Part shown: positions 30,155 to 52,488 of the stretch, one piece after another | Numbering within the stretch: position 1 is the first letter of the stretch | Layout: every line of letters starts with the position of its first letter | Assembly: GCA_014804965.1 (NCBI GenBank) | Contig: JAAUYU010000025.1 | Coordinates: 17,747-81,376 of the forward strand | Direction of reading: 5' to 3' | Length of the DNA: 63,630 nt | Source: Desulfovibrio sp. | GTDB lineage: Bacteria > Desulfobacterota > Desulfovibrionia > Desulfovibrionales > Desulfovibrionaceae | The notes under the pieces: model-generated | The model's input: only the letters and a program-made list of their open reading frames with translations | What the model was told of the DNA's origin: nothing | Database searches by the model: none | Translations under genes and position numbers: made by a program

Positions 30155-30166
30155 GGGGTTTCGGAG

Positions 30167-31438: not shown

Positions 31439-31480
31439 AGGCCGCTGCTGCCCTTTTTGCGACGGCCCACCAATGCAACA

Positions 31481-31508: not shown

Positions 31509-31566
31509 CATTTCTGAAGCCGGAACTCCCCGGCGGGAAGGCTATCCCTTCACCAGCCGCAAGTGC

Positions 31567-32823: not shown

Positions 32824-33184
32824 GGTTCTCCCCATTTCTTCCTCCATTGTCCTGCCCCGGATTTTTCGTCGCAAGGGGCGCACTGCATAAAGAAGGACAA
32901 ATAAACCTGCTATAAAAATTATATTATTTACAGAGAATAAACTCAGGCGTAGCGTTGCAAGGTAAAACATCTTCAGGTGGCCGGGGTGTCGGGGCTGGAG
33001 TCAAAGAGCCCACGGTGGCGCGGATTTCCTCGCCTTGTTCCCGACCCTGGCACACACCTTTTCAACACAACATACAGCCCGAAAGACGTTAAACTATCCG
33101 GGCGCCTTTGGCAAATGAGCGGCAGATGCTTCAGGAACGGCATCGCGCATCACCTGTTCACGAACCCTTCAGAGGAGATGGAAG

Positions 33185-34381: not shown

Positions 34382-34502
34382 CGCCCGCGCGCACCGGCTC
34401 CCTGTGGCGGAGCCGGCGCGCCGCGAAAGGAGGCCCGCGAGGACGCGCAGGCGCGCTGCCCCAGGCAAAGTTCACAGAATTTCGCAAACCGTGGAGCACA
34501 CC

Positions 34503-35393
34503 ATGGGCCGAAAAATCGAAATAGTGGAAGTGGGACCCAGAGACGGCTTTCAAAACCTCTGCGACTACATTCCCGCAGAGGAAAAGCTGCGTTTTATTGA
34601 CGGGCTTGCCGATGCGGGCATCACGCACATCCAGGTCACGTCCTTTGTCAGCCCCAAGGCCATCCCCCAGATGAAGGACGCCACGGAAGTGGCGAAGGAG
34701 GCGCTGGCCCGCCACCCCGGCCTGGATTTTTTCGCCCTCGTGCCCAATCTCAGGGGCGCGCAGGCCGCAAAAGACGCGGGGCTCAAGAAAGTGAGCAACG
34801 TCATTTCCCTTTCCGAGTCCCACAACAAGGCCAATATCCGCAAGACCCACGAGGAATCTTTTGCGGAGCTGGACAAGATACTGGAGACGCTGCCCGAGCT
34901 CGAGGTCAGCATCGACGTGGCGACGGCCTTCGGCTGCCCCTTTGAAGGCAAGTTCCCCACGGAAAAGCTGCTCTCCTTCCTCGACGTGCTGTATAAAAAG
35001 GGCATCCGCGAGTTCACCCTGTGTGACACCACGGGCATGGCCAACCCCGCGCAGGTGCGGGAGGTGGTCACAAAAGTGAAGGAAGCCTTCCCGGACGCCG
35101 TTTTTGAAGCCCATATCCACGACACCCGCAACATGGGCATGGTCAATACGCTGGCGGCCATCGAGGCAGGCATCGACAAGGTGCAGTCCACCCTGGGCGG
35201 CCTCGGCGGTTGCCCTTTCGCCCCCGGCGCCTCAGGCAACACCTCCACGGAAGACCTCGTGAACATGCTCAATGAAATGGGCTATGAAACCGGGGTGGAT
35301 GTGGAAAAACTCGTCTCCCTGGCGCGGGAGGAAAAAGCGAAGATCCCGGGCATCTACAGCGGGCACCTGCTCAATATGCCCGTTACCGTGTAG
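34503..35393 (+). CDS. HMG-CoA lyase-like (HMGL-family) acyl-CoA lyase
   Basis: IEIVEVGPRDGFQN motif. DRE-TIM fold family. ATG 34503 lies inside track ORF 34341..35393. Confidence 0.85.
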   Translation: MGRKIEIVEVGPRDGFQNLCDYIPAEEKLRFIDGLADAGITHIQVTSFVSPKAIPQMKDATEVAKEALARHPGLDFFALVPNLRGAQAAKDAGLKKVSNVISLSESHNKANIRKTHEESFAELDKILETLPELEVSIDVATAFGCPFEGKFPTEKLLSFLDVLYKKGIREFTLCDTTGMANPAQVREVVTKVKEAFPDAVFEAHIHDTRNMGMVNTLAAIEAGIDKVQSTLGGLGGCPFAPGASGNTSTEDLVNMLNEMGYETGVDVEKLVSLAREEKAKIPGIYSGHLLNMPVTV

Positions 35394-35545
35394 GCGGGGA
35401 GGAGCGGCCGGACGCCCCCGGCGGCACTTATACGCGTCCCATGCTCCCGACTGGTCCTGCCCCTGTTCCGTCACGGGCAGGACCAGTTTTTTCCCGTCAC
35501 GGCACACCCAGGCCTTGACCGGACCACAAACAAGGAAGCGGCGAA

Positions 35546-36391
35546 ATGGCTTGCGGCAAAACCTGGCTCATCACCGGCACATCCTCCGGCCTCGGCAAAT
35601 GGCTGGCCACAGAGGCCCTGCGGCAGGGGGAGAACGTCATCCTCACTGCACGGAACCCCGCCGATATTGCGGCCCTGGCAGCCCTCTATCCCCAAACGGC
35701 GCTGGCCGCACGGCTGGATGTGACGGATGAGGCCGGCATAGCGGCCGCGGTCGCGGCTGGGCTCGCGAAATTCGGCCGCATCGACGTGCTGGTGAACAAT
35801 GCCGGCTATGCCCTGCGTGGCGCAGCCGAGGAGTGTTCCCTCGAGGAGGTCAGGCGGGAATTCGATGTGGACTTCTTCGGCCCGGTGCGCTGCATCCAGG
35901 CCGTGCTCCCGCATATGCGTGAGTTCCGGAGCGGCCTTATCATCAATTATTCCTCCATTGCGGCGCTCTCCTACACGGCGGGCTCGCCCTTTTATTCGGC
36001 GGCCAAAAGCGCCCTTGAGGCCTTTTCGGATTCCATGCGGCTGGAGGTGGAACCGCTGGGCATAAAGGTGATGGTGGTGGAGCCGGGCCCCTTCCATACC
36101 AATTTTCACGACCGCTCCATCAGCATCACGCCCACAAATATCGCCGACTACGCCCCGACGGCGCACAAGCGCAAGGTGCGCCTCGCCAATCCCGAGAGCG
36201 CCGGAACCGGCTTCGGAGACCCGCAAAAGGCGGCTCTCGTCGTCCTCAAGGCCGCATCCGAGGCCACACCGCCCCGGCATCTGGTGCTGGGCTCCCATGC
36301 CTGGCAGCGGGCCGAAGCCGCCCTGAAACAGCGCCTCAAGGAGCTGGAGGACTGGAAAAGGCTGAGCGTGCAAAGCGACAAGGAGGGATAA
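35546..36391 (+). CDS. SDR-family oxidoreductase
   Basis: ITGTSSGLG cofactor motif and YSAAKSA (YxxxK). Confidence 0.85.
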   Translation: MACGKTWLITGTSSGLGKWLATEALRQGENVILTARNPADIAALAALYPQTALAARLDVTDEAGIAAAVAAGLAKFGRIDVLVNNAGYALRGAAEECSLEEVRREFDVDFFGPVRCIQAVLPHMREFRSGLIINYSSIAALSYTAGSPFYSAAKSALEAFSDSMRLEVEPLGIKVMVVEPGPFHTNFHDRSISITPTNIADYAPTAHKRKVRLANPESAGTGFGDPQKAALVVLKAASEATPPRHLVLGSHAWQRAEAALKQRLKELEDWKRLSVQSDKEG

Positions 36392-39588: not shown

Positions 39589-42500
39589 CTAGAACTCATA
39601 GCGCAGCACGCCAAACAGGCCCTGGTTGGCGGTGTGCTCGCCGAACTGGGCGATATAGTTGATGCCGCCGGAGAAATTGCCCGCCCTGAACTCCACGCCC
39701 GCGCGGCCGCCATACGTGATGTTGTCCATGACCTGGCTCTCGAAGTCCTGCTCCGCATGCGCGCCCGCATAACGCACCTTGGTCGTGGCGTAGGTGTCGC
39801 TGAGGGTCGGGATGGCCTTGAGGTTGATGAGCGGCGTGATTTCCCAGCCGCTCTCCAGCCGGAAAGGCTTGGTCAGCACGAGGCCGAAGGGCATGGTCCA
39901 GACATTCTGGTGTGTGCGCAGGCCGTGCAGCACCTCCTCGCCATTGAGGGTGGCGTCAAAGGGCTCGGTGACCATGTGCAGGTAGCGCACCCCGAGGTGC
40001 GGGCGCAGGTTCACATATTCGGTGTCGATCTCGTACTCGGCGCGGAGGCTCATGCCCAGCGACCAGGCCGGGATGTCGGCCTTGAGCTCGCTGCCGTCCA
40101 CCTCGCCGGGCAGGTCCTGCCGGACCTTGTTGTAAACCGAGGTATAGTCGATCTCGGCGTCGAGGCTGAAGGCTCCCGGCTTCCACACTCCATAGGCCCC
40201 GATACCCCAGAAATTGGCGTTGTTCCGGGTGGTGGCCATGTCGCCCGTGCTTTTCACATAGCCCGCACCAAGATTGAGGCTCAGGCCCGCGCGCAGGGTA
40301 TTGCCCCAGGTGTAGTCGCCGCCGATGGCGAGGCCGCCGATGCCGCCGCGGAAGCCGTAGCTCGCCGTGCCTCCGTCGAGCCCGGAATGGTCGATGGATT
40401 CATAGAGCGGGATGGCCCAGAGCGCGAAACTGTGCCGGTAGAGGTCCTCCTGCCCCAGCTTGATGCGCGAGTAGATGGCCGACTCCATGGACTCGCTGGC
40501 CGCGCGGGAGAGCCTGGGCACGCCGCTGGCCACGCCCACGCTCTTGGTGTGCGGGGCCTTTTCCGTCACCGAGAACTGCCCTTCCTTGCCGTCGCCGAGG
40601 CGTGTGAGGCCCAGCAAGGGATTGCTGGAAATGAGGTTGGCCCCGTTCCAGGCCGTGTCATCGGCATAGCTGGTGGTGATGTTGCGGCCGAGCGCCACAT
40701 AGGTGTGACCCGGCGTCACATGGTCGATATAAATTTTCGCGCCACCCGGCACCGTGGTGGCCGTGGGGGAGGCGGCGCTGATGGCCCCCGGCACGGAGGC
40801 GGGGAGCGCCCGCGTGGCCACCGCGGGATTGGGGTAGTTGACCCCGGCCTTCGCGCCGTCAATGGCGAGCAGGGAATTGGAGGAAAAACTCAGGGAAGGC
40901 GCTCCTGCCCTCGCCTGCGGAGCGGCCCGGCTCATGGCGCGCGTGGCCGCGCCCACCGAGGCCGTGTGATCCACGCTGAGCTGCGCGCCCAGCGTGAGCG
41001 GCGAAAACACGCCGAGCACCGCGGCGGAGGGGCCCATGCCTGCCCGGGCCGTGATGGCCCTGAGGGTCCCCGTATCGCGCGTGCCCGTGGCGAGACGGCC
41101 GTTGTGGCCCACGGTGATGTCGCCGTCCGTGAGGCTGCCCTGGCCGCTTGCGGTGACGAAGTTCTGCACCGCGCCGAAAGCCTGACCCGCGCCGGCGCCC
41201 ACGCTGAGCGCATGGCCGTTCAGCCGGAGGTTCCCGATCTTCACGTCCGTGACTGCGGCCGTGTCCGCGGCCGCGCCGACCTGCATGTCGCCCCCGGTGA
41301 CGGCGACGGAATTGACGCTGGCGTCGATGCCGTTGTGCAGGGTGACGGACTGGGCGCTGAGCGTGTCACCGCTGAGGGCGCCCCCGCCGATGCGGGCGGA
41401 ACCGGCCACGCCCATGGTGGTGAAGCGGCTAGCGCCATTATTGTTCACATCCATCCTGCCGCCCACCCAGGCGGCCTCATTGTGCGCGACGAGGGCGCCG
41501 CCCGCGCCGTATTCCGCATTCCCCACCGCCTCTGTGCCCGTGATGCTGAAGGAGCCGTTGTGCAGGGTGAAGTCGCCGGAGCTTCCGCCGTCGATGTCGC
41601 TCTTGACCACCATCAGGCGCCCGGTCTCAATGCGCGAGGGGGTGGAGACGCCCGCGAAGTCTGTCACCTCGCCAGCCGCGATGAGGGACGCCTTGACGTT
41701 GGTCCCGGTAAGCGTCTTGGCCGGGGTGATGGAAAAGGGGCCACCCACGCTTATCTGGCCGCTGGTGCGGTCAACGCCGGCCACGATGCTGCCCCCGGCG
41801 CTGATACTGTCGGCCGTGAGGTTGCGGACGCCGATGCTGCCCCCGGCCTCGATGGTCAGATGCCCGCTCCCCTGCAAGACATTGTAGGCGCGATATGCCG
41901 AGCTGTAGGTGCCGATGTCTCCCCCGGCGCGGATGGTGCCCGAGGCATTCTGGATGCCGCCATCCCCGAGTTGATGCGGATCCAGGAAATAGATGTTGCC
42001 TCTCGACTCCAGCAGCGACCCCGCCTGCATACGGTTGGCCGTGCTCCCGAGGACCCCGTTGATGTGGACATCCAGGTTGGAGGTCACCTTGCCCCCGTTC
42101 TGGATGTCGAGATCACGGATGGTAAGCCTCGCCTGGGAAAAGACCTCCATGCCGCTGGCAACGCGCACGGTTGTCACCATGTGCTGCCCGCCCCCGATGA
42201 GGCGGATATTGCCGTTCTGCGCGTACATTTCATTGAAAGGCGCGTTGCCTGACCCTACGGCGCCATTGACGACAAGGTTCGCGCCGTTGGTGACAACGCG
42301 CGAAGCGCTGCCGGATATACTCCCGATGTTGCCGTCGATGGTCACAGTGGGGCGATTGGATGTGGCTCCGGTCCCGACGATGACGGTGCTCTGGCCGGTG
42401 CCTCCAAGCGAAAGAGTACCGGAAAAGGTGCCCTTCTGGAGCACAAGAGTGGCGTTGCCGCTGTCCGATGAAAGGGAGAAGCGCGGCGTGCGGCTGGTAC

Positions 42501-42762
42501 TGCCGGTACTGGTGAACAGCACACCGCCATTGTTGCCTGTGAGGGTGAGGGTGCCATTGCTGTATATGAAAGCGCCTGACCGGTTCGTGACAGTTATCTG
42601 CGCATAGGTATTGTCGCCGGAGAGTGACGTGCCGCTGTACGTGCTGTTGGGATCATTTGTCGCGCCAGCCGGGGACGGCGCAAGGCAGAAGCCGAACAGC
42701 ACCGCGGTGAGCGCGGGAAGCAGACCCTTGAGAAAAGAAGTTTCATGCGGAAAAGCAGTCAT
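39589..42762 (-). CDS. Autotransporter (type Va) outer-membrane protein with a large Gly/Thr/Asn-rich passenger
   Basis: Signal peptide ending PAGA-T. About 750-aa repetitive beta-helix-like passenger. C-terminal about 280-aa amphipathic beta-barrel ending LRYEF. ATG 42762 with AGAGG RBS is preferred over the TTG at 42783. Confidence 0.85.
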   Translation of the reverse strand: MTAFPHETSFLKGLLPALTAVLFGFCLAPSPAGATNDPNSTYSGTSLSGDNTYAQITVTNRSGAFIYSNGTLTLTGNNGGVLFTSTGSTSRTPRFSLSSDSGNATLVLQKGTFSGTLSLGGTGQSTVIVGTGATSNRPTVTIDGNIGSISGSASRVVTNGANLVVNGAVGSGNAPFNEMYAQNGNIRLIGGGQHMVTTVRVASGMEVFSQARLTIRDLDIQNGGKVTSNLDVHINGVLGSTANRMQAGSLLESRGNIYFLDPHQLGDGGIQNASGTIRAGGDIGTYSSAYRAYNVLQGSGHLTIEAGGSIGVRNLTADSISAGGSIVAGVDRTSGQISVGGPFSITPAKTLTGTNVKASLIAAGEVTDFAGVSTPSRIETGRLMVVKSDIDGGSSGDFTLHNGSFSITGTEAVGNAEYGAGGALVAHNEAAWVGGRMDVNNNGASRFTTMGVAGSARIGGGALSGDTLSAQSVTLHNGIDASVNSVAVTGGDMQVGAAADTAAVTDVKIGNLRLNGHALSVGAGAGQAFGAVQNFVTASGQGSLTDGDITVGHNGRLATGTRDTGTLRAITARAGMGPSAAVLGVFSPLTLGAQLSVDHTASVGAATRAMSRAAPQARAGAPSLSFSSNSLLAIDGAKAGVNYPNPAVATRALPASVPGAISAASPTATTVPGGAKIYIDHVTPGHTYVALGRNITTSYADDTAWNGANLISSNPLLGLTRLGDGKEGQFSVTEKAPHTKSVGVASGVPRLSRAASESMESAIYSRIKLGQEDLYRHSFALWAIPLYESIDHSGLDGGTASYGFRGGIGGLAIGGDYTWGNTLRAGLSLNLGAGYVKSTGDMATTRNNANFWGIGAYGVWKPGAFSLDAEIDYTSVYNKVRQDLPGEVDGSELKADIPAWSLGMSLRAEYEIDTEYVNLRPHLGVRYLHMVTEPFDATLNGEEVLHGLRTHQNVWTMPFGLVLTKPFRLESGWEITPLINLKAIPTLSDTYATTKVRYAGAHAEQDFESQVMDNITYGGRAGVEFRAGNFSGGINYIAQFGEHTANQGLFGVLRYEF

Positions 42763-42968
42763 CACACACCTCTGCTTGGGCAAGGGTCATGGGTGGAGGC
42801 GGCGCGGGCTCCCTGCCGTCGCGCCAGTGAGCACGCGGCGGGGTTCGCAGCGCCCGCAGCCGGGCGGCGCTGCGAAACAGTCGAAAAGCCTCCGGCTTCA
42901 GTCTGCCCGTGCCGTGGCCACCATTTTGTCGATCCTGCTATTGCATATTCCCAAACTGCGCAAATGTC

Positions 42969-43356: not shown

Positions 43357-46296
43357 TCACTGTAACTTTATCCAGCTTTCCTTGTTGTAGATCGGTCCCT
43401 GGATATTATACACATGTAGGAAGTTAAAGGTGTTTTTCTTGTGTGCTGCCCTTCGCCAATTGCCGAACACATGCAAGCGCTGCCTGGCCTGGTCCTGCCA
43501 GGGAAATTGTTTTTCCTCGGCACCTGCAGCCAGACTATTCCGGATTATGGTCACCACATCCCAGTTGGCCATGAGTGATTTTCTGTCTATTCTTAACTCG
43601 CCATGGGCTCCGAATTCCTTGACCAAGAGGAGCCCGTGCAGAAACAGGGGAGGTTCCGGCGCGGACGCCCAAATTTTCCGTATCTCTAAGCTATCACCAT
43701 GATGATCATGATCAGAAACAAGAATAATCTCTGTATTATTATATACATTATTTTTTTTCATCCAATCAAACCATGCAATTAATTTTTTCAATGTAAAATA
43801 TTCTGCTCGTATATGATCATCAGAAAAACCCTGTGCCAATTCTTTTGGGTCATATTTCCAGGCTTCTTTCTTTTCTGGCATACCATTTTCATCTAAAATC
43901 CATGGGAAATGTGGTAGCAAATTCATAATATATATAAAACAATTTTCATCGGTATCCGAAATTTTCGATGCATATAGCGGAAGCTCTAGACCTGCTAGCT
44001 GGGCTGTTGTAAATCTGATATCATAGCTGGCTTTGCTTATTGTTTTATTCCACCTCCCATTATCATATAATTTATTTTTATATGTTAACGGTGAGATATT
44101 GTAAAAGCCAAGAATATTGAAAAAACCGCTGAAACTCTGACTCGTATTCATATTAAAGTTATGCATTTTTTTCCACTTGCTCAGGGCACCCTCCCACAAC
44201 AGCCAGGGGGCATTCACAAAATTCGTATTTTCTGTTGTTTTTAAGTATGGATAAACTAATTCCGGATGAAAAAAATCGTTGTCGAATACGGAAAGCCTGA
44301 AATTCCTCTCTTGTAATTCGCTGAAAAACTTTCCAAAAGTGGCGGCAAATTTTTCCTCAAGACTCTTGCTGGCATCCTTATTCAAGTTAAAGGGATGTGC
44401 CGCTTCACCGCCCAGGATAGGCGCCTTTCCAAAAATTGTGGCATTCCCCGCTGTCACTACATCCTCATACCAGATGAAGCCGTCAAGTTCGGTTTTCAGC
44501 TCAGGGTGACGCTCCAGGAGTTGGTTCATGTTCCCACCGGTAAACATGTCCAGCATGACGACAACAATATTTTTCCCATGCCTGCTGAAGGTAAAAAATT
44601 TTTCTACGTGCTCAGGAACTTTAGTATCATCGCTAATTTCACCTTTGGACTTCTCAATGCCGGCGATAGTTGCCTGAGCTGTTGAGAAGTGGACACCTAC
44701 CATGACAAAGAGCAGGGCAAGCGCACTGTAGATCAAGTTTGAAAATATTTTCAGCTTCCTGAACCAGATGAGCGCGAGAAAAAGGAAAAAAACCCCCATG
44801 AAGATAAGAGCGTCCACATCCCTGTTATACCATTGGTCAAGGGCTTCGGGTTTTTGCAGGATAAAGGCGTCCATCACCCCCACATCGGGAGCGACGATGA
44901 AGCAAAAGGCAAGGGCGGCAAGCGCGCACATGCTGAACAGGGCGCCGAACAGCCAGCGCACCGGCCGCAGCAGCACCCCCGCCACGGCAATGCAGATGAG
45001 GATGGCCAGAAAGACCCCAAACCTGTTGGAGGCGAAATCCTCCAGGCCCATATCGAACACCAGGGGATCGGAACTGAAGACCATGAACGGAAGATACACA
45101 AAAACCAGGAATGCAAGGAGTGTCACGGCTGGCAGGAAGAGCGCGCCAAGCTCTTTTTTCTGCGCACGCGCGTCGGCAAATATCCTTGGCGCGAACTTTT
45201 CACAAAAGAGGACGCCGGCCAGCGCGAGGCCCAGGAGGAGCAGGCGCACGACAACCTTGATGAAGCTGCCCTGCCAGACCCCATATTTGGCAACGATAAA
45301 GACAAATCCGGCTGCCCCGGCGAGCGCCACCAGAAGCTGGAGGAGAGAGAAGCGCCTGAGCCACGCCACCTTTTTATAGGCAAGGATGCCGATACCGATG
45401 AGCAGCAGGAGGGCCGCCAGCAGCGGGACCGCCACCGTCAGCGAAAGCCGCAGCCGCCCCCAGGCCGCGCCGAGCAGGAACAGGGCAGCCGCGCCCATGA
45501 GGATGCGCGGGCCCGAAAGCTGCACCCGCCAGGCAGCCAGCCTCGGCGCAAGGGCCTCCGCGGCGGCGCCCGCGCTTTCGTACCGCGCCTCAAGCCAGTG
45601 CATGGCCTCAGTCCAGCCCGGGCGCTTCATCCAGTCCTTCTGGACGATGTTCTTGCAGAGGGAATAGATGTTGTTAAGCGTCCAGTAAAAGGTGAGACCT
45701 GCCGGAGAATTGTAGAGAAGCACCAGGAAGATGCCGGCCATGCCGTAGAGCTGTATCTTGTCCCGCCTCGACAGGCCGTGGGTGTAGAAAAAGGCGGAGA
45801 ACAGGTTGACGGCGGTCATGAGGATAGGCAGCACATTGATGTGCACCCCGCCGATAGACAAAAGGCCGTCCGGCGCGCCGAGATTGCGGATGGGCCCGAA
45901 GCTCACGCCGTCGAGCACGGCCATGTTGGAAAGCAAAAGATAGGCGGCGAGAAAGAAGGGAATCTGGAGGAGGAGGCCGATGCTGGCGCGCAGGGTCATG
46001 AGCGGGCTGAAGCCGCACTGCTTATACAGGGTGGAGAGCATGGCAAAGCGCTCCTGCCCCCTGAAGCAGCGACGGATCATTTTTTCCTTGGGCTCCATGC
46101 GCTTTTTGAGCGCCCTCTCCTCCTCCTGCCATCCCTCAGCCTTGTTGTAGATGGGGAGCACCGCCGTATTGACCACCAGGCTCACGCCGATGAGCGCCAG
46201 CCCATACGAATGGGTCAGCGCATAGCCGCCTTCAAATACGGCCTTCATGCAAAATTCAATGGGCGCGATAAAGATGAGCCAGAGAAAGTCAAGCAT
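43357..46296 (-). CDS. Fusion protein: N-terminal YidC/Oxa1-like insertase domain, polytopic membrane block, C-terminal sulfatase/LtaS/OpgB-like (alkaline-phosphatase superfamily) domain
   Basis: aa 28-216 align by eye to the YidC/SpoIIIJ core (GLALIGVSLVVNTAVLPI..., LQIPFFLAAY, SPAGLTFYWTLNN). aa 250-540 contain about 8-10 TM segments. aa 574-900 carry NIVVVMLDMFTGG and ILVSDHDHHGD, typical metal and active-site motifs of LtaS/EptA-type enzymes. Confidence 0.75.
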   Translation of the reverse strand: MLDFLWLIFIAPIEFCMKAVFEGGYALTHSYGLALIGVSLVVNTAVLPIYNKAEGWQEEERALKKRMEPKEKMIRRCFRGQERFAMLSTLYKQCGFSPLMTLRASIGLLLQIPFFLAAYLLLSNMAVLDGVSFGPIRNLGAPDGLLSIGGVHINVLPILMTAVNLFSAFFYTHGLSRRDKIQLYGMAGIFLVLLYNSPAGLTFYWTLNNIYSLCKNIVQKDWMKRPGWTEAMHWLEARYESAGAAAEALAPRLAAWRVQLSGPRILMGAAALFLLGAAWGRLRLSLTVAVPLLAALLLLIGIGILAYKKVAWLRRFSLLQLLVALAGAAGFVFIVAKYGVWQGSFIKVVVRLLLLGLALAGVLFCEKFAPRIFADARAQKKELGALFLPAVTLLAFLVFVYLPFMVFSSDPLVFDMGLEDFASNRFGVFLAILICIAVAGVLLRPVRWLFGALFSMCALAALAFCFIVAPDVGVMDAFILQKPEALDQWYNRDVDALIFMGVFFLFLALIWFRKLKIFSNLIYSALALLFVMVGVHFSTAQATIAGIEKSKGEISDDTKVPEHVEKFFTFSRHGKNIVVVMLDMFTGGNMNQLLERHPELKTELDGFIWYEDVVTAGNATIFGKAPILGGEAAHPFNLNKDASKSLEEKFAATFGKFFSELQERNFRLSVFDNDFFHPELVYPYLKTTENTNFVNAPWLLWEGALSKWKKMHNFNMNTSQSFSGFFNILGFYNISPLTYKNKLYDNGRWNKTISKASYDIRFTTAQLAGLELPLYASKISDTDENCFIYIMNLLPHFPWILDENGMPEKKEAWKYDPKELAQGFSDDHIRAEYFTLKKLIAWFDWMKKNNVYNNTEIILVSDHDHHGDSLEIRKIWASAPEPPLFLHGLLLVKEFGAHGELRIDRKSLMANWDVVTIIRNSLAAGAEEKQFPWQDQARQRLHVFGNWRRAAHKKNTFNFLHVYNIQGPIYNKESWIKLQ

Positions 46297-47688
46297 CTAC
46301 TTGCCCTCTTTTGCAGTCAGGTCAAGGATGGCGTCCACCACGGGCCCGGCGGCGCAGCCGAAATTGGCGACATTGGCGTCGCGCACCTTGCGGATGCGCT
46401 CCGGCCAGTCTGTTTCTGCGGCCAGCCTTCGCACGAGGGCGGGGAGCCGCTCAAGGTCGGGCGTGGTCAGGGGGATGCCGATATCCGAAAGGACAGCCGC
46501 ATTCCAGCGCGTGTAGTGGAGATCAAATGCCTCAAAGCCCCCGGGGTCCTGGTTTGGCTCATAGAGCGTGATAACGGGCCGGAAGAACACAAAGGCAAGG
46601 TCAAAAATGACGGTGGAAGTGTCCGATACCATCACCGCGGCGCGCCGGAGCGAGTCAAAGCCGTCGGGGTTCCTGTCCCAGGTGATGTTCTTGTAGCCTG
46701 AGAGCTCACTTTCCATCCGCTCCATGAGCTTGACATCGGAAATGTAGCTTTGCGGATGCGGCCGCAGAATGACGTTGAAGCCGGCATCAGCGAGGATGCG
46801 GGGCACCGCCGAGCCAAAACGGTTGAACATGCCGATCTTGCCCCAGGTGGGAGCTATCAGCACGCAGTTGGGATCCGGCGTGTTCTCGCCAAGGGCCTCC
46901 CGGCGCGCCACCAGCCCGTCAAGATAGGGGACGCCTGCGATGGGGAGTTCCTTGGGCTTTGTCCCCCGCAATGCTTCCAAAGTCCGCAGGGATTTTATCT
47001 GATAGTCACCGTTGCAGATGACCGCATCGTAATAATCAAAGGCGAATAACTTGTAATAGTGGATGTCGCCCACCGAATGCAGCACATGGATATACTTGCC
47101 CACACCCTTGGACCGCCGGATCTGGAGTACCCCCACCCCGGGCGTGGTCAGCACCAGGGCATCGGCTTCGAGAAAGTTCAGGGCCGTGTACGCCGCGTTG
47201 CCTTTGCCGATGTAGCGGCATGTGATGCATGCGGGAAGATCGGCCGTGAAACAGGGATCATCTTCAGTGGAAGTCAGGTACTCCACCGCTTCGCCGCGAC
47301 GACCAAACTCTTCCAACAAAGGGCGGAATGTGCCCCAATAGTTGGCGGATTCACCATAGATGACGAGATGCTTGTGCTTCAGCAGCCTGTCCTTGCCAGT
47401 GACCTTGAACAGGAATGTTCTCGTTAGAGAGGGAACCTTGCGCGCCATGAACCACGCGCCGGAAAGCACACCGATACATACGGAAAGCAGCATGCTACCC
47501 GTTCCAGGGTCCAGGTACGCATGTGAGGTACATGGTGTACCTAAGAGGAGGGCTCCTGTTATAAAAAAAACATTCAAGACTGTGGTTGCTTTTTTCAAAA
47601 TCGTAGTCTTCCTTTCTTGGTAACATTCCATAATGCGTTCGGGTTCTTGTCCGCTGTAAGCAAAGAAATATATAGTTTCGGACCCCAA
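46297..47688 (-). CDS. CDP-glycerol glycerophosphotransferase (TagB/TagF) family protein with an N-terminal membrane anchor
   Basis: C-terminal half carries VLIAPTWG..., ILRPHPQSY and MVSDTSTVIFDLAF, as in TagF-type enzymes. Two N-terminal hydrophobic segments. Start uncertain (TTG 47688 or ATG 47631). The stop TAG abuts the next ATG. Confidence 0.7.
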   Translation of the reverse strand: MGSETIYFFAYSGQEPERIMECYQERKTTILKKATTVLNVFFITGALLLGTPCTSHAYLDPGTGSMLLSVCIGVLSGAWFMARKVPSLTRTFLFKVTGKDRLLKHKHLVIYGESANYWGTFRPLLEEFGRRGEAVEYLTSTEDDPCFTADLPACITCRYIGKGNAAYTALNFLEADALVLTTPGVGVLQIRRSKGVGKYIHVLHSVGDIHYYKLFAFDYYDAVICNGDYQIKSLRTLEALRGTKPKELPIAGVPYLDGLVARREALGENTPDPNCVLIAPTWGKIGMFNRFGSAVPRILADAGFNVILRPHPQSYISDVKLMERMESELSGYKNITWDRNPDGFDSLRRAAVMVSDTSTVIFDLAFVFFRPVITLYEPNQDPGGFEAFDLHYTRWNAAVLSDIGIPLTTPDLERLPALVRRLAAETDWPERIRKVRDANVANFGCAAGPVVDAILDLTAKEGK

Positions 47689-47820
47689 GAAAAAATCACA
47701 TGCGACTAATCCTAAAAAGGGATTTATATATTCATCTACAGATTATAAGCTTATTCTCCAAATGCAATCGATAGTGATCATTAGCTCGAGAGAATGCATA
47801 TCTATATAAGATAGTGTAAA

Positions 47821-49404
47821 TTACCGTACTTGTGTATAGGGAATAACCCAAAGGATTAGAAAAATTGCGGTAAACAACGCACCCATCCCTATCGAAGCAA
47901 AAACAATTCTCTTTGTAACTCTAATCTGCGTGGGGTTCTTTTCGCTTTCGGGCATCACAAACAGGGCCTGTCGTTCACGCGTTTCCTCTGGGGTTACTTT
48001 TGTTAGCGAACTCGCAATAACTATGCCGAGGATATTGAGCACAAGACCAACAAAGAACGGATCCAAATAAAGTGGTGGTTTAATACCAGCAATTGACGTA
48101 TATATCTTAGCAGCCCCGCAGCCTACAAAGCCAAGTAACATGCCAGTGAAAGCACCCGCTTTTGTGATCCTGCGGCTCCAGATACTTGCCACGCACACAG
48201 GTAACCAGGAACACGCAATTACTGTCGCGCCGAGAAACATAATCCAGAATACCTGTGGCGGATTCCACGCTGCAAGCAGCATTACTGCCGTCGCAGACAT
48301 GATGATTGCGATGCGGCCGGCCATGAGTTTTTTTCTGCCATCACGTATACGCACCAGGTCATTTGCCACTGCGGAACCGATGATTGAAAGAAATGTGGTC
48401 GCAGACGAGATGCCGGCGGCCAGAACACCTGTAAGCATGATTACACCCAGGGACAGTGGTACAAGGTGTGTGGCGGCCCAAACAATGATATGAGATGGAC
48501 TTTCCAAGGGGGGTTCAAAATAATTGAGCAGGACTGCTCCTGTAATCACGAAAAATTCAATTAAGAAAACAAAAAAAGCGGCGATTATGGAAGAGCGAAT
48601 AACTGCATGCTCATCCTTGGCCATCAGGTAACGGGTGGCTTGCCAGGGACCGACCATGCAGACGGACATCCAGACAATGCCATAGCAGAGCATCCAAAGA
48701 AAGTTTTGTGCAGCCGTCGGGTAGAGATAGCTCGGATCTCCTCCTGCCGCCAGTTTACTGGGGAATTTCTGGGCGAGTGTTTCCACTACATGAAACCAGC
48801 CTCCACCACCGTTTATCATGGCGAGGATGACGATAATGGTGATGATCGTAAAAAAACCGAACATTATAGTGTCAGTAATCAGAACACCTTTGGACCCAGA
48901 GGCAGCGGTTAAAATGGTGAAGGTTACCAAGGCGAGCAGAATGCAGAGGGTGTAATCGATGTCTGTGACAAGTGTCATCAGAGTGCCGATACCCTGCATC
49001 GTTGCAAGTAGATACACACTAATGCTGATTAATTCCGTTATCGCAGCCAATTTTTGAACCTTTAGAGAATTAAAGCGTTTGCCGAGAAACTCAGGAATCG
49101 TCACACACTCACTGCGCCTAATATACCGGCCAAAAAAAACACCACCAAGAATATATCCTGCTACCTGTAAGGTATCGACACCCATCAGAGGTGCAAATAA
49201 TCCGGCAAAGGATTCGCCGGCATCCCCAAAATAAAGTCCTGTACTAGCGTAGGAGGCGACAAGGGAGCCGACTAAAAGAAAAACCGGTGCATTCCGCCCG
49301 GCTACAAAAAAATCATTGGCATTCCTAACCTTGCTGCTTATCAGCACGCCAATAAAGATATAGGCGAGCATGGAAAGCAACATTCCAAACAAAAAAGGGT
49401 TCAT
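47821..49404 (-). CDS. Sodium:solute symporter (SSS/SLC5) family transporter
   Basis: 527 aa, about 13-14 TM. N-terminal DFFVAGRN motif typical of SSS proteins. Confidence 0.85.
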   Translation of the reverse strand: MNPFLFGMLLSMLAYIFIGVLISSKVRNANDFFVAGRNAPVFLLVGSLVASYASTGLYFGDAGESFAGLFAPLMGVDTLQVAGYILGGVFFGRYIRRSECVTIPEFLGKRFNSLKVQKLAAITELISISVYLLATMQGIGTLMTLVTDIDYTLCILLALVTFTILTAASGSKGVLITDTIMFGFFTIITIIVILAMINGGGGWFHVVETLAQKFPSKLAAGGDPSYLYPTAAQNFLWMLCYGIVWMSVCMVGPWQATRYLMAKDEHAVIRSSIIAAFFVFLIEFFVITGAVLLNYFEPPLESPSHIIVWAATHLVPLSLGVIMLTGVLAAGISSATTFLSIIGSAVANDLVRIRDGRKKLMAGRIAIIMSATAVMLLAAWNPPQVFWIMFLGATVIACSWLPVCVASIWSRRITKAGAFTGMLLGFVGCGAAKIYTSIAGIKPPLYLDPFFVGLVLNILGIVIASSLTKVTPEETRERQALFVMPESEKNPTQIRVTKRIVFASIGMGALFTAIFLILWVIPYTQVR

Positions 49405-49523
49405 CGGGCACCCCTTTTATTTTTGCTTGCATCTTCATAGTCTTTCTTAACGCGTATCCATGCCGCAAAAGCAGCACCGGAAACCCAGATGCCAAAAAAA
49501 ATCACGAGGAGATATTCCATCAT
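49401..49523 (-). CDS. 40-aa single-TM peptide (MMEYLLVIFFGIWVSGAAFAAWIRVKKDYEDASKNKRGAR), candidate symporter small accessory subunit
   Basis: Not in the ORF track because it is under 60 aa. Hand-translated. GAGAGG lies 9 nt upstream. Its TGA overlaps the symporter ATG (ATGA at 49401-49404). It starts 6 nt after the upstream stop. Confidence 0.45.
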   Translation of the reverse strand: MMEYLLVIFFGIWVSGAAFAAWIRVKKDYEDASKNKRGAR

Positions 49524-49529
49524 AAGCAA

Positions 49530-51305
49530 TCACCTCTCACTTCTATCTGGTTGTTCTAATACCATCTTTCTATAATTTGCCATTTTTTCGTACCATACTG
49601 GTACATTTTTCATCTCAACATGATTTAGCGCACTTTTATATAGACCCCAAACAAACCAATAGTAATAACAAACCGCGCTGCAAGCGAACAAGTGTTTTTT
49701 TTCTTCAATCGTAGTCATACGACCGTAATAGGGAAATAGCAATTTGTCAATGTCTTCCAATGGCACGTCGGACATACTAAAAAGTTTACAAATATCAAAA
49801 CCAATATCCGAGTCACCTCCGTATTCCCAATCAATCAGCTCAAGCCTGTCATTTTCAATCAGAATATTGTCTGCATAGATGTCATTATGGCAGAGGCATA
49901 TTTGCCATTTGTCGTTATCAAGAAATTCAAATACAGGAAGCATGAATTCCGTTTCGTGCACAGCAATTTTGTATTTTTCATAATCAAGTTTTTTCAACAA
50001 TCCCAGAATTCTGTCACTTTCCTTTTTGTAATCATATTCGAAACCAGAACAAATATTGTTATCATGCAATATTTTAAGCTTTTGGACAAGCAGCCCGATA
50101 TGGCGTGACTCACTAGGTTTAAATGTTTCGGTTTCATTGATAAATTTTGATATCATCCACCCTTCTTCCGCATCCATATAAATAAGGGAATGCGACAGTC
50201 CATTTTTTTTGGTTTCCTGTAACACTGCCCATTCTCTTTTCCTGTCGATTAACAATTTAGAGTTAATACTCGAATGCCTGTAAATATAGGACTCACCATT
50301 CAGTCTAAATTTGAATTTATGATTGGTGAGTCCTTTATTTATTGGTTCTATTTGTTGGATGTCTTCAATCTTGCAATTCAGCACGTTACATATATTTTTA
50401 AAAATATTAACCTTGTTATTGTTGAGGAAGCATGGATCAAAAGCATTAAGTTCTGCCATACTGTCAAACTCTAGAATATCAGCTGGGTCACATGGAAGCG
50501 CCCACAATCGTAAAAGATCGATATCCTTGGCCCAGATTGTTTCCCAATACATATCTTCGACGCCGGGCTGATTCCAAAATTTTGTCATAAATGGAATAAA
50601 TTTGCTCGCGAAGGGATGATCCAAATACGCGTGTCCGTACATTACCCACTGATCGCAGGACGGTTTGTCGGTTGAAATAATCCTTTGTTCCGCATCCAGA
50701 ACAAGTCCTCTTTCAGTTTCGTGGGTTCCCGGTTTGAAGATGGAGCAGTAAAATGCCCGGTATTCATATTGATGAAACATATTACGTGGATAATAATTAT
50801 CGGAACATATAATGTAAGAGTTCCCGAGATACTCTTTTGCGTAGTAAACACTACTATGGGTGTTCTTTATAGAATATTCATTGTTTATCACAAATTTTAC
50901 ATTATATTTTTCGCGTAAGTAGAGAAATTTTTCTATCATTGCTCCTACAACAACAATAATTTCTCTTATTCCTGCATCTCGCAACTGTTCAATCAATCTT
51001 TCTATAAGAATATCCCCTTTGACACTGAGGAGGCCTTTTGGCCGTTCCCAGGAGACCGGCATAAAGCGCTTGCCCAACCCTGCCGAGAGAATAATGGCAT
51101 TTTTTACCCTGTACGGTTCAAGGCTCTCAAGGCCTTCGGGGGCAATTCCGCCTGCTTCATTGAGCTTACCTCGTTGCTTCAGTGTCTCAATCAGCTGGGC
51201 AACATGAGACAAGGGCGTCTTTGTGTATTCGGCTATCTGTGTTGGCGTGGGTAAGCCACCAAGCTCGCTGATATACCGTAAAATAGTGAATTCTTCTTTG
51301 TCCAT
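49530..51305 (-). CDS. Tri-domain protein: winged-helix domain, LicC-like CTP:phosphocholine cytidylyltransferase, LicA-like choline/ethanolamine kinase
   Basis: aa 67-170 (AIILSAGLGKRF...PKGLL...IIVVVG...GNSYIICSDNYY) closely follow the LicC pattern. aa 470-510 (LCHNDIYADNILI, IDWEYGGDSDIGFDICKLF) are Brenner/choline-kinase motifs. GGAGAA RBS. Confidence 0.8.
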   Translation of the reverse strand: MDKEEFTILRYISELGGLPTPTQIAEYTKTPLSHVAQLIETLKQRGKLNEAGGIAPEGLESLEPYRVKNAIILSAGLGKRFMPVSWERPKGLLSVKGDILIERLIEQLRDAGIREIIVVVGAMIEKFLYLREKYNVKFVINNEYSIKNTHSSVYYAKEYLGNSYIICSDNYYPRNMFHQYEYRAFYCSIFKPGTHETERGLVLDAEQRIISTDKPSCDQWVMYGHAYLDHPFASKFIPFMTKFWNQPGVEDMYWETIWAKDIDLLRLWALPCDPADILEFDSMAELNAFDPCFLNNNKVNIFKNICNVLNCKIEDIQQIEPINKGLTNHKFKFRLNGESYIYRHSSINSKLLIDRKREWAVLQETKKNGLSHSLIYMDAEEGWMISKFINETETFKPSESRHIGLLVQKLKILHDNNICSGFEYDYKKESDRILGLLKKLDYEKYKIAVHETEFMLPVFEFLDNDKWQICLCHNDIYADNILIENDRLELIDWEYGGDSDIGFDICKLFSMSDVPLEDIDKLLFPYYGRMTTIEEKKHLFACSAVCYYYWFVWGLYKSALNHVEMKNVPVWYEKMANYRKMVLEQPDRSER

Positions 51306-51337
51306 TTTACTTCTCCAATTAACATAAAAACGTTTAA

Positions 51338-51372
51338 CAAAAAAGGGGACACATTTTTTACAGTTCCCCCTT
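51338..51372 (-). promoter_or_regulatory. Terminator-like hairpin plus U-tract inside the 5' leader of the island operon (candidate attenuator)
   Basis: The minus strand reads GGGGGAACUGUAAAAAAUGUGUCCCCUUUUUUG. That gives about 7 bp with one bulge, then U6, ending about 30 nt before the start codon and upstream of the SD. Confidence 0.3.
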
Positions 51373-51465
51373 GAAATTCATGAGGTTGGAACGAGAACAG
51401 AACTCCCAACCCTTTGAGTGCCATTCAGGATTCCGGATAGCCCCCTGTTTGTCCTTATTTTTATC

Positions 51466-51494
51466 CTTATATTTCAATGAGTTTTGAGCATCAA
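51466..51494 (-). promoter_or_regulatory. Candidate sigma70-type promoter of the island operon
   Basis: The minus strand reads TTGATG (51494-51489), 17-nt spacer, TATAAG (51471-51466). It lies about 160 nt upstream of ATG 51305. Confidence 0.3.
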
Positions 51495-52412
51495 GCTTGC
51501 TGCCCTTCCCGATCGTAGTATTTTCCTATCTGACTGATGGTAGAAATGCGCTTGAAAATCGGGTGTCTCGTGTCAGCCACGAAACTCCTCACTCCTAGCT
51601 GCGATGGAATTTTCTATCACGAAGATAGACGTTTATCAAGGACGGGAATTTTGGCGTCGTCTTTTGTCGTCCAGCTTATGCCAAATTACCCATGTGGAAA
51701 GCTTTGCCGGCAATGACATAATAAAAATAATCAGATTACTGCTTCCATTCTCTGTTGCACGCCAGCTCGCTTCGTGATTCGTGTGCATCTTGTAAGGATA
51801 GTTTTTTTGAGATTATTTCTTGCCAGCCTTATACCTCAAATTTTACCTTAGAGTGTACACTGCTATTTACTATCAGCAGTCCTAAAATATGCTCATACAT
51901 ATAAAATGATGAAGTCCTTTCCGAAATTTCCTGTCATTATGCGCGAATAATGCATGCCTGCTATTGCACCAGCCCAGAAGAAGTCCTTATGATACTTTCA
52001 CACACGAGATAAAAAGTTCGTACCGGGCATAGCCCATTCTCTTGCAGGCGTGGTCCGAGAGTTTTTCTTCGCTCGCAAGTGAAATATGGCTGGCAAATTT
52101 CGCGCAAGTGTCAGGCTTTGTTCCCAAAACGTACTCCGCTTTCTCAGGTGGTGACACTACCATGCCTCCGGCGCGCATACAGCCGATAATTACCAAAAGT
52201 CCGCGGCAGACGCCCTCGAGTATCGCAATGGCTGGCGCTGTTTTTTGGGGATGGCTTTTGCCTGTTCTCCGCATTTTCACTCGTCCTTTTGCTCGCCGGC
52301 TCCGTTGCCAAGTGAGCCTCTTGCGCCGCAGAGTAGGGGCGCCGTACCCCAGACCCCTTAAACGCCAGTTCCGCCAAGCGCCCGAAGCCCTTGGCGGAAC
52401 CGGAAAAATTCC

Positions 52413-52488
52413 TGGTGGAGAAGAAGGGATTTGAACCCTCGACCCCCGCCTTGCGAAGGCGATGCTCTCCCAGCTGAGCTACTTCCCC
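52413..52488 (-). tRNA. tRNA-Ala(CGC): tRNA-Ala, anticodon CGC, CCA encoded
   Basis: Hand-folded 76-nt cloverleaf: acceptor GGGGAAG/CTTCTCC with the G3:U70 Ala identity pair, anticodon loop TTCGCAA, T loop TTCAAAT. Confidence 0.93.

Follow-up and report, generated by a model that had tools for sequence, protein, structure and literature searches.

A single gene in the genome of a Desulfovibrio sp. joins a YidC-type membrane-insertase fold to a predicted periplasmic phosphotransferase of the LtaS/EptA type, and it is well supported that this gene belongs to a four-part cassette, of which its product would form the membrane and periplasmic part and whose task is probably the decoration of the cell envelope. 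The gene occupies positions 43357..46296 on the reverse strand of the window (the whole stretch of 63,630 nucleotides that was analyzed, from assembly GCA_014804965.1) and runs from ATG to stop over 979 amino acids; its product is identical to protein HDQ89_08340 of the NCBI MAG Desulfovibrio sp., where it is named 'hypothetical protein'. A sequence-only reading had described this frame as an insertase core followed by a multi-TM block and a sulfatase-like domain, and each part of that description holds. The accompanying concern, that the frame might be split, was addressed with independent assemblies: these contain full-length, intact orthologues (975–988 aa, 52–82% identity), and the single fusion ORF is therefore not an assembly artefact.

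The fusion architecture is not rare. Some 2,450 clusters (50% identity) match it at E≤1e-30, with representatives in Desulfovibrionaceae, Sutterella, Bacteroidales, Firmicutes and spirochaetes, and individual clusters are large (687 member sequences for Sutterella wadsworthensis, 890 and 1,194 for others). Automatic annotation (PGAP) names the family "YidC/Oxa1 family membrane protein insertase". A literature search found no paper describing this family or such a fusion, in agreement with the earlier remark that no such protein had been described; of the novelty then attributed to the architecture, the lack of an annotation with a known function stands, whereas the architecture itself is common and already carries a domain-derived database name.

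Domain architecture of the fusion protein

The AlphaFold2 model of the 979-residue protein has a mean pLDDT of 86.4. The YidC/Oxa1-like module (aa 1–222; 45631..46296, reverse strand), delineated by Pfam, PDB sequence matches and Foldseek, comprises an N-terminal helix, TM1, a hairpin and TM2–TM5. It is followed by a poorly conserved segment (45163..45630, reverse strand) made up of a cytoplasmic linker (aa 223–261) and a four-TM spacer (aa 262–378), with pLDDT of 43–84 and an identity of 0.14–0.16 among relatives; family members of 830–880 aa do without it and are gapped over roughly aa 226–372. A five-TM block (aa 379–551; 44644..45162, reverse strand), recognized by hydropathy, AlphaFold2 helices and Foldseek, then precedes, as in LtaS, EptA and PbgA, a periplasmic domain of the alkaline-phosphatase (AP) superfamily (aa 552–979; 43357..44643, reverse strand) that was identified by Foldseek, a family-profile match to LtaS and conservation and within which the codons for D583, T620, H796, D862 and H863 were checked. 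Hydropathy and the AlphaFold2 helices give a topology of 5 + 4 + 5 TM helices which, together with a hairpin rich in K/R and expected on the cytoplasmic side, places the ectodomain outside.

Conservation is distributed unevenly over the protein. The mean pairwise identity of the YidC module (0.62) is the highest of any region, against 0.33 for the ectodomain, and GC3 breaks inside the gene, from a host-like 0.815 in the YidC module to 0.444 in the ectodomain. When two syntenic Desulfovibrio genomes are compared, identity reaches 94% in the YidC module and 59% in the ectodomain, and the head-group module is a different one altogether. With a column identity of 58% in the TagF-like protein encoded next to the fusion, the YidC module and this partner form the conserved core, from which the ectodomain diverges.

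The YidC-like module and its groove

The insertase core, placed at about aa 28–216 by eye in the sequence-only reading, was recovered by the Pfam model 60KD_IMP (PF02096), which matches aa 31–218 with 71.8 bits (cutoff 35; profile positions 1–160 of 163) and gives 68–97 bits for relatives, and by Foldseek, which superposes the AlphaFold2 model on E. coli YidC (6AL2) with an rmsd of 3.8 Å over about 209–224 columns at 22% identity. The modelled helices (31–77, 81–93, 98–123, 155–174, 177–194 and 199–222) reproduce the five-TM core with a coiled-coil cytoplasmic hairpin between TM1 and TM2 that is common to the YidC/Oxa1/Alb3 proteins, and the motifs Q-I-P-F (TM2), N-x-L-P-I-L-M (N154–M160, entering TM3) and Y-W-x-x-N-N (TM5) are retained. 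Scores fall short of the NCBI cutoffs for named YidC insertases: TIGR03592, whose cutoff of 84.3 bits is the NCBI threshold for the name 'membrane protein insertase YidC', scores 73.1 bits, and the NCBIfam equivalog models for YidC reach 12–62 bits against cutoffs of 276–1094. Unlike the known insertases, the fusion lacks a P1 domain, a lipoprotein signal and a ribosome-binding tail at the C-terminus, carries 5–9 extra TM helices and an enzyme domain, and in loci with usable flanks always lies within a small-molecule activation operon.

The differences reach into the groove. HMMER aligns the region with B. halodurans YidC2 (3WO6) so that VVNTAVLP stands opposite LIRLALLP, which places Asn43 (codon 46168..46170, reverse strand, checked) opposite the groove arginine, where the earlier alignment by eye had also put it. 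Among 50 relatives this position holds Asn in 47 and Ser in two and is gapped in one, with neither Arg nor Lys in any. A ladder of polar residues accompanies it: S39 is present in 48 of the 50 relatives, and Q111, N154, T161, N164, S167, Y171, Y204, W205, N208 and N209 in all of them. Judged from these residues, the groove would be polar and uncharged, Asn standing where YidC has Arg. Whereas YidC proteins normally vary in their cytoplasmic hairpin, the fusion family conserves it strongly (aa 52–97, identity 0.63), with a near-invariant WQEEER and invariant G80, E82 and R83.

The phosphotransferase ectodomain

The Pfam Sulfatase model (PF00884) remains below threshold on the window protein (14.9 bits, cutoff 25) and passes it in two homologues (32.7 and 25.5 bits), others scoring 17–25; no NCBIfam LtaS or EptA model matches the fusion protein. 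The fusion-family profile, on the other hand, matches S. aureus LtaS, its best relative by sequence in the PDB, with E=2e-5, and the alignment sets H796 on H416 and D862/H863 on D475/H476, in the LtaS numbering of Lu et al. 2009. Structural comparison is in line with this assignment: Foldseek returns full-length MCR-1 (9NWW), PbgA/YejM (6XLP, 6V8Q), LtaP/LtaS and sulfatases at a probability of 1.0, with only 10–14% identity to the matches in the LtaS/EptA/PbgA group, and the alignments extend past the soluble domain (625 columns for MCR-1, 669–691 for PbgA). The arrangement of five TM helices followed by an outward AP-fold domain is that of LtaS, EptA (MCR-1), PbgA (YejM), OpgB and GacH.

The motifs VVVMLDMF (with D583) and SDHDHH (with D862–H863), singled out at the outset as signatures of the LtaS/EptA type, are invariant across 50 relatives, and H796, which aligns with the substrate-binding His of LtaS, is present in 49. 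Residue 620 is Thr or Ser in all 50 and stands at the start of a helix (620–623) after the strand 607–610; the invariant D583 follows the strand 576–582. By position and conservation, T620 may correspond to LtaS T300 and D583 to LtaS E255; the set of LtaS-type residues would include a Thr after strand 2 and an acidic metal ligand after strand 1. The chemistry expected of such a domain is the transfer of a phospho-alcohol from a lipid donor via a Thr-phosphate intermediate. In the known members of the LtaS/EptA/PbgA group the head group comes from resident phospholipids (PG or PE), and neither a CDP-alcohol nor a TagF-like partner nor a YidC-like module is required.

The TagF-like partner and the activation modules

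The operon context, missing from the sequence-only reading, says most about function. Directly upstream of the fusion, at 46297..47688 on the reverse strand, lies a TagF-like CDP-alcohol phosphotransferase gene whose stop abuts the ATG of the fusion (TAG-ATG) and whose true start is probably near 47631. The model of its product (pLDDT 86.9, AlphaFold2) adopts a GT-B-like TagF fold, with S. epidermidis TagF (3L7K/J/I) as the top three PDB matches (E 1e-12 to 3e-12). Pfam Glyphos_transf (PF04464) is weak for the window protein (17.1 bits, cutoff 22.1) and clear in orthologues, one of which (from locus L003) scores 44.8 bits; the match is precomputed for many homologues. The N-terminal region contains the motif YLDPGTGS (47494..47517, reverse strand), recognized by its conservation across loci and followed by one TM helix and RKxPS. 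Apart from L or I at its second position, the motif is identical in 8 loci; it is near-invariant in 36 homologues, is found next to the fusion in 15 further loci besides the window, and has a Bacteroidales variant, YIDPASTS.

The partnership is obligate: a TagF-like gene adjoins the fusion in every one of the 13 distinct contexts whose flanks are usable (window, L001, L003, L006, L009, L011, L013, L015, L017 and L018–L022), usually in stop-start coupling. In L015 and L003 a single TagF-like gene is accompanied by two or three tandem fusion paralogues, which fits one donor serving several acceptors.

The other two parts of the window cassette, also on the reverse strand, are a sodium:solute symporter (SSS; 47821..49404; Pfam SSF, 102 bits), a candidate choline importer, and a fusion of a wHTH domain, a LicC-like cytidylyltransferase and a LicA-like choline kinase (49530..51305), predicted to synthesize CDP-choline. 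The latter matches S. pneumoniae LicC (1JYK, E=4.6e-36), the choline kinases 3DXQ and 4R77, and the Pfam models Choline_kinase and NTP_transferase. A cytidylyltransferase together with either an importer or de novo phosphonate genes is found at nearly every locus with usable flanks. The symporter takes the position held in other cassettes by PhnS2-type ABC or GlpT-like MFS importers: some cassettes combine a TagD-like CTP_transf_like protein with a PhnS2/PhnU2-like ABC importer, and some have a GlpT/PgtP-like MFS transporter. The de novo phosphonate cassettes encode a cytidylyltransferase-PEP mutase fusion, Ppd and an Fe-ADH or aminotransferase, enzymes with roles given in PMC8942020.

Upstream, the variable cassette is bounded by a tRNA-Ala(cgc) gene (52413..52488, reverse strand; ARAGORN), and synteny with the sister genome breaks at window position 52351; such a swap-prone cassette at a tRNA gene fits surface variation. 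Neighbours elsewhere in the family include LPS and polysaccharide genes, namely RgpF with an ABC2 exporter (L013), a heptosyltransferase (L020) and GT8/GT2 glycosyltransferases (L011), which favours a role at the envelope.

A proposed route and its alternatives

We put at even odds the proposal that the window cassette decorates the cell envelope with phosphocholine by way of a lipid-linked intermediate, a YidC-like conduit and transfer by the ectodomain. Choline would be imported by the SSS symporter and converted to CDP-choline by the LicC-LicA fusion. For all steps after CDP-choline synthesis we infer the following course. The coupled TagF-like enzyme, anchored by YLDPGTGS and its TM helix, would put phosphocholine on the hydroxyl of a lipid carrier at the cytoplasmic face; the YidC-like module would dock this partner, and its polar groove might let the polar head of the lipid cross the bilayer; the ectodomain, with D583 and D862/H863 as metal ligands, would take the phospho-head-group onto Thr620 and hand it to an acceptor in the envelope, for instance LPS or some other glycan, or a surface protein. 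The same engine may serve other family members for phosphonates (CMP-HEP or CMP-AEP) or other imported organophosphates.

That the groove might serve a lipid-linked substrate had been suggested before the operon was considered, and the suggestion fits the obligate TagF-like partner, the CDP/CMP modules, the polar, uncharged groove and the finding that E. coli YidC scrambles glycerophospholipids in vitro (PMC11047089); a flippase role itself is something that we infer from this fit. Other considerations speak against the proposed route. TagF-family enzymes usually act on Und-PP-linked glycans, and this activity alone could explain the partnership, with no flipping by the fusion; and, as no LicD-type match was found among the cassette proteins scanned, phosphocholine transfer by a TagF-like enzyme would be new chemistry for that family.

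The leading alternative, which we consider rather unlikely, is that the YidC-like module moves no lipids and is a receptor, or a one-client insertase, for the N-terminal segment of the TagF-like protein, yielding a trans-membrane complex of two enzymes. A single TM helix behind a short acidic stretch (Y-L-D-P-G-T-G-S), with positive residues on the inside, gives the partner's N-terminus the shape of a classical YidC-only substrate; motif and helix are conserved as strongly as the YidC module, the conserved cytoplasmic hairpin suggests a fixed protein partner, and the two genes are translationally coupled. Such a complex would, however, not account for the passage of a cytoplasmically activated head group to the periplasmic domain, so that translocation would still be needed, and three tandem fusions would have to share a single TagF-like partner. 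The groove arginine of B. subtilis-type YidC, which forms a pair with the acidic tails of substrates (PMC8920935), is lost here, which speaks against classical insertion of an Asp-containing tail. Docking can coexist with the preferred route via a lipid-linked intermediate, and for the module we regard two roles as equally open, that of a flippase and that of a site where the N-terminal helix of the partner docks or is inserted.

It is improbable that the module is a working YidC paralogue that inserts or folds its own enzyme or neighbouring envelope proteins, with the LtaS/EptA-type part drawing on a resident phospholipid donor. The YidC fold, the passed Pfam family threshold and the PGAP name would suit such an insertase, but the family-wide replacement of the groove arginine and scores under the TIGR03592 cutoff and far under those of all YidC equivalogs would not; a domain with a mere helper function should not be conserved at twice the level of the catalytic domain, to our knowledge stand-alone LtaS, EptA and PbgA need no YidC-like module, and a resident phospholipid donor would leave the CDP-X and TagF-like genes purposeless. 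Slightly less probable still is a scavenging role, in which the ectodomain would be a hydrolase (phosphodiesterase or phospholipase-like) that frees choline, phosphonate or organophosphate from host or dietary lipids or glycans for import by the adjacent transporter: importers do often neighbour the fusion, and choline sulfatases and phosphonate monoester hydrolases are among the Foldseek matches, but de novo phosphonate cassettes have two or three fusions and no importer, the best PDB relative by sequence, LtaS, is a transferase, and no role would be left for the TagF-like enzyme or the YidC-like module.

Relation to known systems and implications

The preferred route via a lipid-linked intermediate resembles in its logic the three-component lipid-carrier modification systems Gtr (GtrA/GtrB/GtrC), Arn (ArnC/ArnEF/ArnT) and CsbB/GtcA/YfhO, in which loading on a lipid in the cytoplasm is followed by a flip by a small membrane protein and transfer to an envelope polymer by an outward polytopic transferase. 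The cargo there is a sugar on undecaprenyl phosphate, the flippase is of the GtrA or SMR type and the transferase is a GT-C enzyme, whereas the steps proposed here from the genes would involve a phospho- or phosphono-alcohol, a TagF-like loader and a YidC-fold candidate flippase fused to an AP-fold transferase. With the Lic1 pathway (LicA, LicB, LicC and LicD) of S. pneumoniae and H. influenzae the window cassette shares the choline kinase and CTP:phosphocholine cytidylyltransferase domains. It differs in that LicC and LicA are fused behind an N-terminal wHTH and the SSS symporter stands in place of LicB; no LicB- or LicD-type family match was found among the cassette proteins scanned, and the transfer step appears to be replaced by the TagF-like enzyme and the YidC-AP fusion.

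The phosphonyl-tailoring (Pnt) clusters, which serve phosphonoglycans and phosphonolipids (PMC6697681, PMC8942020), have the cytidylyltransferase-Ppm fusion, Ppd and the AEP transaminase or Fe-ADH that are also found beside family members, although the window itself has no phosphonate genes. For phosphonate tailoring the nucleotidyl activation step has been identified and LicD-like transferases have been mentioned, and Selenomonas AEP clusters 'that encode multiple sulfatases' have been noted (PMC8942020 for the latter, both sources for the former); neither paper, searched in full text, mentions YidC, TagF or glycerophosphotransferase. Nucleotide activation of phosphonate head groups takes place in the cytoplasm, and their route to surface glycans and lipids is an acknowledged gap (PMC6697681, PMC8942020), for which the fusion family is a concrete candidate.

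More tentatively than for the window cassette itself, we suggest that an Oxa1-superfamily fold has left protein biogenesis and now serves within an enzyme as its dedicated conduit or flippase for lipid-linked phospho-head-groups, and that with the TagF-like loader docked via its DPGTGS-TM segment it forms an unrecognized, widespread three-step route that brings choline, phosphonates and related groups, once activated as CDP or CMP derivatives, out of the cytoplasm to the surface. The established role of YidC/Oxa1 proteins is the insertion of proteins, and their scrambling of lipids in vitro is a recent finding; if the suggestion is true, this would be the first physiological case of the YidC fold serving small-molecule or lipid traffic. 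The family could then also supply the transfer step that is missing for many phosphonoglycans and phosphonolipids of bacteria. Zwitterionic decorations, phosphocholine and AEP among them, modulate host immunity; members of the family abound in common human gut bacteria, and the route could provide gut bacteria with a LicD-independent phosphocholine pathway.

The fusion and its two modules

The open reading frame at 43357-46296 (minus strand) runs uninterrupted from ATG to stop and encodes a 979-aa protein, identical to the MAG protein Desulfovibrio sp. HDQ89_08340, whose database name is 'hypothetical protein'. Since the frame is clean and full-length orthologues (975-988 aa, 52-82% identity) occur in independent assemblies, a frameshift or assembly chimera is very unlikely, and the single intact ORF proposed in the sequence-only reading stands. 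Another long ORF (622 aa, 44833-46701, plus strand) lies antisense to the gene, one of several on opposite strands that we regard as artefacts of a kind common where coding sequence is GC-rich.

The layout of the protein was derived from hydropathy and an AlphaFold2 model computed with 50 aligned relatives as input (mean pLDDT 86.4, pTM 0.68). It consists of an N-terminal helix (aa 2-28), YidC TM1 (aa 31-51), a K/R-rich cytoplasmic hairpin (aa 52-97), TM2-TM5 (aa 98-222), a low-confidence linker (aa 223-261), a four-TM spacer (aa 262-378), a high-confidence five-TM block (aa 379-551) and an α/β ectodomain with pLDDT mostly above 90 (aa 552-979). The linker and spacer are dispensable, because the shorter members of the family (830-880 aa) do without a stretch corresponding to about aa 226-372.

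The YidC core first recognized by eye is recovered at aa 31-218 by the Pfam 60KD_IMP model, whose score of 71.8 bits clears the cutoff of 35 and whose match covers 160 of 163 profile positions. HMMER aligns the region to Bacillus halodurans YidC2 (3WO6) and to Thermotoga maritima YidC, and by pairing VVNTAVLP of the fusion with LIRLALLP of 3WO6 it puts Asn43 at the position of the groove arginine, as had been supposed. The modelled region superposes on Escherichia coli YidC (6AL2) with an rmsd of 3.8 Å over about 210-224 columns. By sequence and fold, the fusion is a divergent member of the YidC/Oxa1 family. Its score with the NCBIfam model TIGR03592 is 73.1 bits, slightly short of the 84.3 cutoff, and each NCBIfam YidC equivalog model scores it far under its own cutoff. 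As the fusion departs from the family in lacking the conserved arginine and also falls under the NCBI thresholds for YidC naming, it should not be labelled 'YidC insertase'.

Mean pairwise identity among the 50 relatives is 0.62 for the YidC module as a whole, 0.73 for TM2 and 0.63 for the cytoplasmic hairpin, compared with 0.33 for the ectodomain, 0.24 for the five-TM block and 0.16 for the four-TM spacer. An uncharged polar ladder is kept on the groove-facing helices, with S39 in 48 and N43 in 47 of the 50 sequences; Q111, N154, T161, N164, S167, Y171, Y195, Y204, W205, N208, N209 and S212 are invariant, and none of the relatives has a basic residue at position 43.

The C-terminal two-thirds of the protein resemble LtaS/EptA-type enzymes, although no curated model of those families matches. 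The Pfam Sulfatase model gives this part only 14.9 bits; homologues pass the threshold. Foldseek retrieves full-length MCR-1, PbgA/YejM, LtaP, LtaS, choline sulfatases and phosphonate monoester hydrolases with a probability of 1.0, and a profile of the fusion family matches Staphylococcus aureus LtaS with E=2e-5. In that alignment H796 falls on H416 and D862/H863 on D475/H476, where LtaS numbering (chain index + 217) and residue roles are those we take to be given by Lu et al. 2009. D583, D862 and H863 are present in all 50 relatives, H796 in 49, and position 620 is T or S in every one. With these five positions kept, the ectodomain looks catalytically competent by LtaS criteria, T620 and D583 being putative catalytic residues assigned by position. 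Because the YidC core ends in the cytoplasm and nine TM helices come after it, the ectodomain is expected to be periplasmic, a placement that it would share with LtaS and EptA.

A search with aa 1-228 gave no stand-alone YidC-like module that we would claim as genuine. It returned mostly proteins of 200-390 aa, which we read as fragments since most come from 1-3 kb contigs or are labelled partial. The two cases examined on long contigs, in the family loci L018 and L019, were rejected, each being a split or frameshifted gene that adjoins a full fusion. At these loci (L018 6623-10417, L019 8001-10582) the TagF-like gene or the fusion is divided between neighbouring ORFs, such as a YidC-like one of 265 aa and a sulfatase one of 595 aa, with an intact fusion alongside; sequencing frameshifts, pseudogenes or true two-gene versions could each account for them.

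The TagF-like partner and the gene neighbourhood

In the window the fusion follows a wHTH-LicC-LicA fusion (49530-51305, minus strand; Streptococcus pneumoniae LicC 1JYK, E=4.6e-36, with choline kinases also matched) and, in the same operon, an SSS symporter (47821-49404, minus strand) and a TagF-like protein (46297-47688, minus strand), whose TAG stop codon touches the ATG of the fusion. The TagF-like partner was placed by fold search only: a PDB sequence search with it returned no match, whereas the three top PDB structures for its AlphaFold2 model (pLDDT 86.9) are all Staphylococcus epidermidis TagF (E ~1e-12). All partners carry Y-[LI]-D-P-G-T-G-S at the N-terminus, with YIDPASTS as one variant from Bacteroidales, followed by one TM helix and positive residues; in most of them a signal-like hydrophobic stretch ending in AxA precedes the motif. 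The NCBI gene for the partner in the window (HDQ89_08345, 398 aa) begins at Met66 and loses both the signal-like stretch and the motif, here YLDPGTGS at 47494-47517. As the motif is kept across phyla, the true start lies upstream of Met66.

Gene context is the most informative evidence. A single-protein search of genome contigs yielded five fusion loci. Apart from the window, 12 distinct gene contexts have usable flanks, and in each of them a TagF-like gene adjoins the fusion; a cytidylyltransferase is close by wherever the contig reaches far enough. The supply module takes the form of a PhnS2/PhnU2-like ABC importer in some loci, a GlpT/PgtP-like MFS transporter in Mailhella, and de novo phosphonate genes in L019 (a CyTase-PEP mutase fusion, a TPP decarboxylase and an aminotransferase) and in the Bacteroidales locus L003 (a CyTase-PEP mutase fusion, Ppd and Fe-ADH), the latter combination being the 2-hydroxyethylphosphonate route (PMC8942020). 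Tandem fusion paralogues accompany a single TagF-like gene in L003 (three, 9986-19412) and in the Mailhella locus L015 (two, 10001-15473), an arrangement that fits one donor serving several acceptors.

In some loci LPS or polysaccharide genes neighbour the cassette. An adhesin gene follows it in two unrelated phyla, encoding a 1,064-aa classical autotransporter in the window (39589-42783, minus strand) and a YadA-head-repeat protein in the Bacteroidales MAG (L003 19692-22199); these adhesins could be a coincidence or candidate acceptors. Together with the LPS and polysaccharide neighbours, they point to envelope acceptors.

Replacement around a conserved core

Locus L001, from a sister Desulfovibrio, is syntenic with the window, with 88-92% DNA identity in the flanks and 92% protein identity for the downstream autotransporter. 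Next to tRNA-Ala, in the interval that reaches to the TagF-like gene, the two loci (window 47523-52351, L001 4365-8774) carry wholly different head-group supply genes: the LicC-LicA fusion and SSS symporter in the window, and an ornithine-cyclodeaminase-like gene, an NTP_transferase-aminotransferase fusion and an octopine-DH-like gene in L001. The TagF-like gene and YidC module retain 85% DNA identity, and the YidC module 94% protein identity; beyond it, the spacer is unalignable, and the five-TM block and ectodomain share 59% protein identity. GC3 in the fusion gene is 0.815 in the YidC module with the linker and four-TM part, 0.694 in the five-TM block and 0.444 in the ectodomain, values to be compared with 0.40 in the LicC-LicA gene, 0.49 in the symporter and 0.846 in the flanking autotransporter. 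This sharp compositional break within the gene (45631-46296 versus 43357-44643) recurs in L001, where GC is 0.61, then 0.49, then 0.40, and suggests that the 3' part was replaced through recombination. On the sequence comparison with L001 and the GC3 break, the TagF-like enzyme and YidC-like module are the conserved engine around which ectodomain and supply genes have been swapped.

Upstream, the low-GC cassette is bordered by a tRNA-Ala(cgc) gene at 52413-52488; a search for att-like direct repeats of the end of this gene gave nothing convincing, and scans for promoters and terminators did no better than chance. A tRNA-Val(tac) gene (18186-18261) marks the exact point at which GC drops, from ~0.69 to 0.54. 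Considered as a possible source of the acceptor, the second low-GC block, at 18-36 kb, is by gene content an unrelated catabolic island: 18000-36000 holds two TRAP transporter sets, two LysR regulators, an OYE-type flavin oxidoreductase, an amidohydrolase, a LarA-like protein and a family III CoA-transferase.

A possible route of head-group transfer

Three predictions are well supported: that the cassette produces CDP-choline, that the ectodomain is an outward-facing LtaS/EptA-type phosphotransferase, and that its partner, a TagF-like CDP-alcohol phosphotransferase, is anchored in the membrane and faces the cytoplasm. As activation is cytoplasmic and the alkaline phosphatase-like (AP) domain periplasmic, we infer that the head group crosses the membrane on some carrier. 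By the simplest route, the TagF-like enzyme would attach phosphocholine to a lipid alcohol, whose polar head the YidC-like groove would pass across the bilayer, and the ectodomain would move phosphocholine via Thr620 to a candidate envelope acceptor. LtaS and EptA carry out this kind of transfer with PG and PE. The cassette as a whole resembles the Lic1 pathway in the first two steps of that pathway, from which it differs in lacking LicD, and its logic is like that of three-component lipid-carrier modification systems.

That the fold is capable of head-group passage follows from the scrambling of glycerophospholipids by E. coli YidC and further Oxa1-family proteins, both in vitro and in simulations (PMC11047089). 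Physical docking of the two proteins is suggested by the strong conservation of the hairpin and by the DPGTGS-TM segment that is conserved in the partner; docking could be the sole role of the YidC-like module, as a rival model has it, or else part of the same mechanism.

Distribution and novelty of the family

When a profile of the family was run against 1.84 billion cluster representatives, 2,453 clusters matched at E≤1e-30. The best 150 of these (E<1e-178) are all large proteins (462-1,247 aa, at least 829 aa in 147) that align end to end or across both modules. The family has named members in Desulfovibrio, Mailhella, Sutterella wadsworthensis, Duodenibacillus, Bacteroidales, Lachnospiraceae, Clostridiales, Peptococcaceae, Treponema and Sphaerochaeta, and their sole database name, 'YidC/Oxa1 family membrane protein insertase', derives from the domain. 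The architecture is common. In keeping with the earlier statement that no described protein of this kind is known, a full-text literature search combining YidC with sulfatase, LtaS, TagF, phosphocholine or scramblase, and covering phosphonate pathways, turned up no paper on the fusion. Databases already contain the sequences, and the individual parts are of known kinds; the domain combination, and the role in head-group transfer that it implies for an insertase fold, appear undescribed, and may, as a possibility that we hold only tentatively, put the Oxa1 fold to a use that is new in kind.
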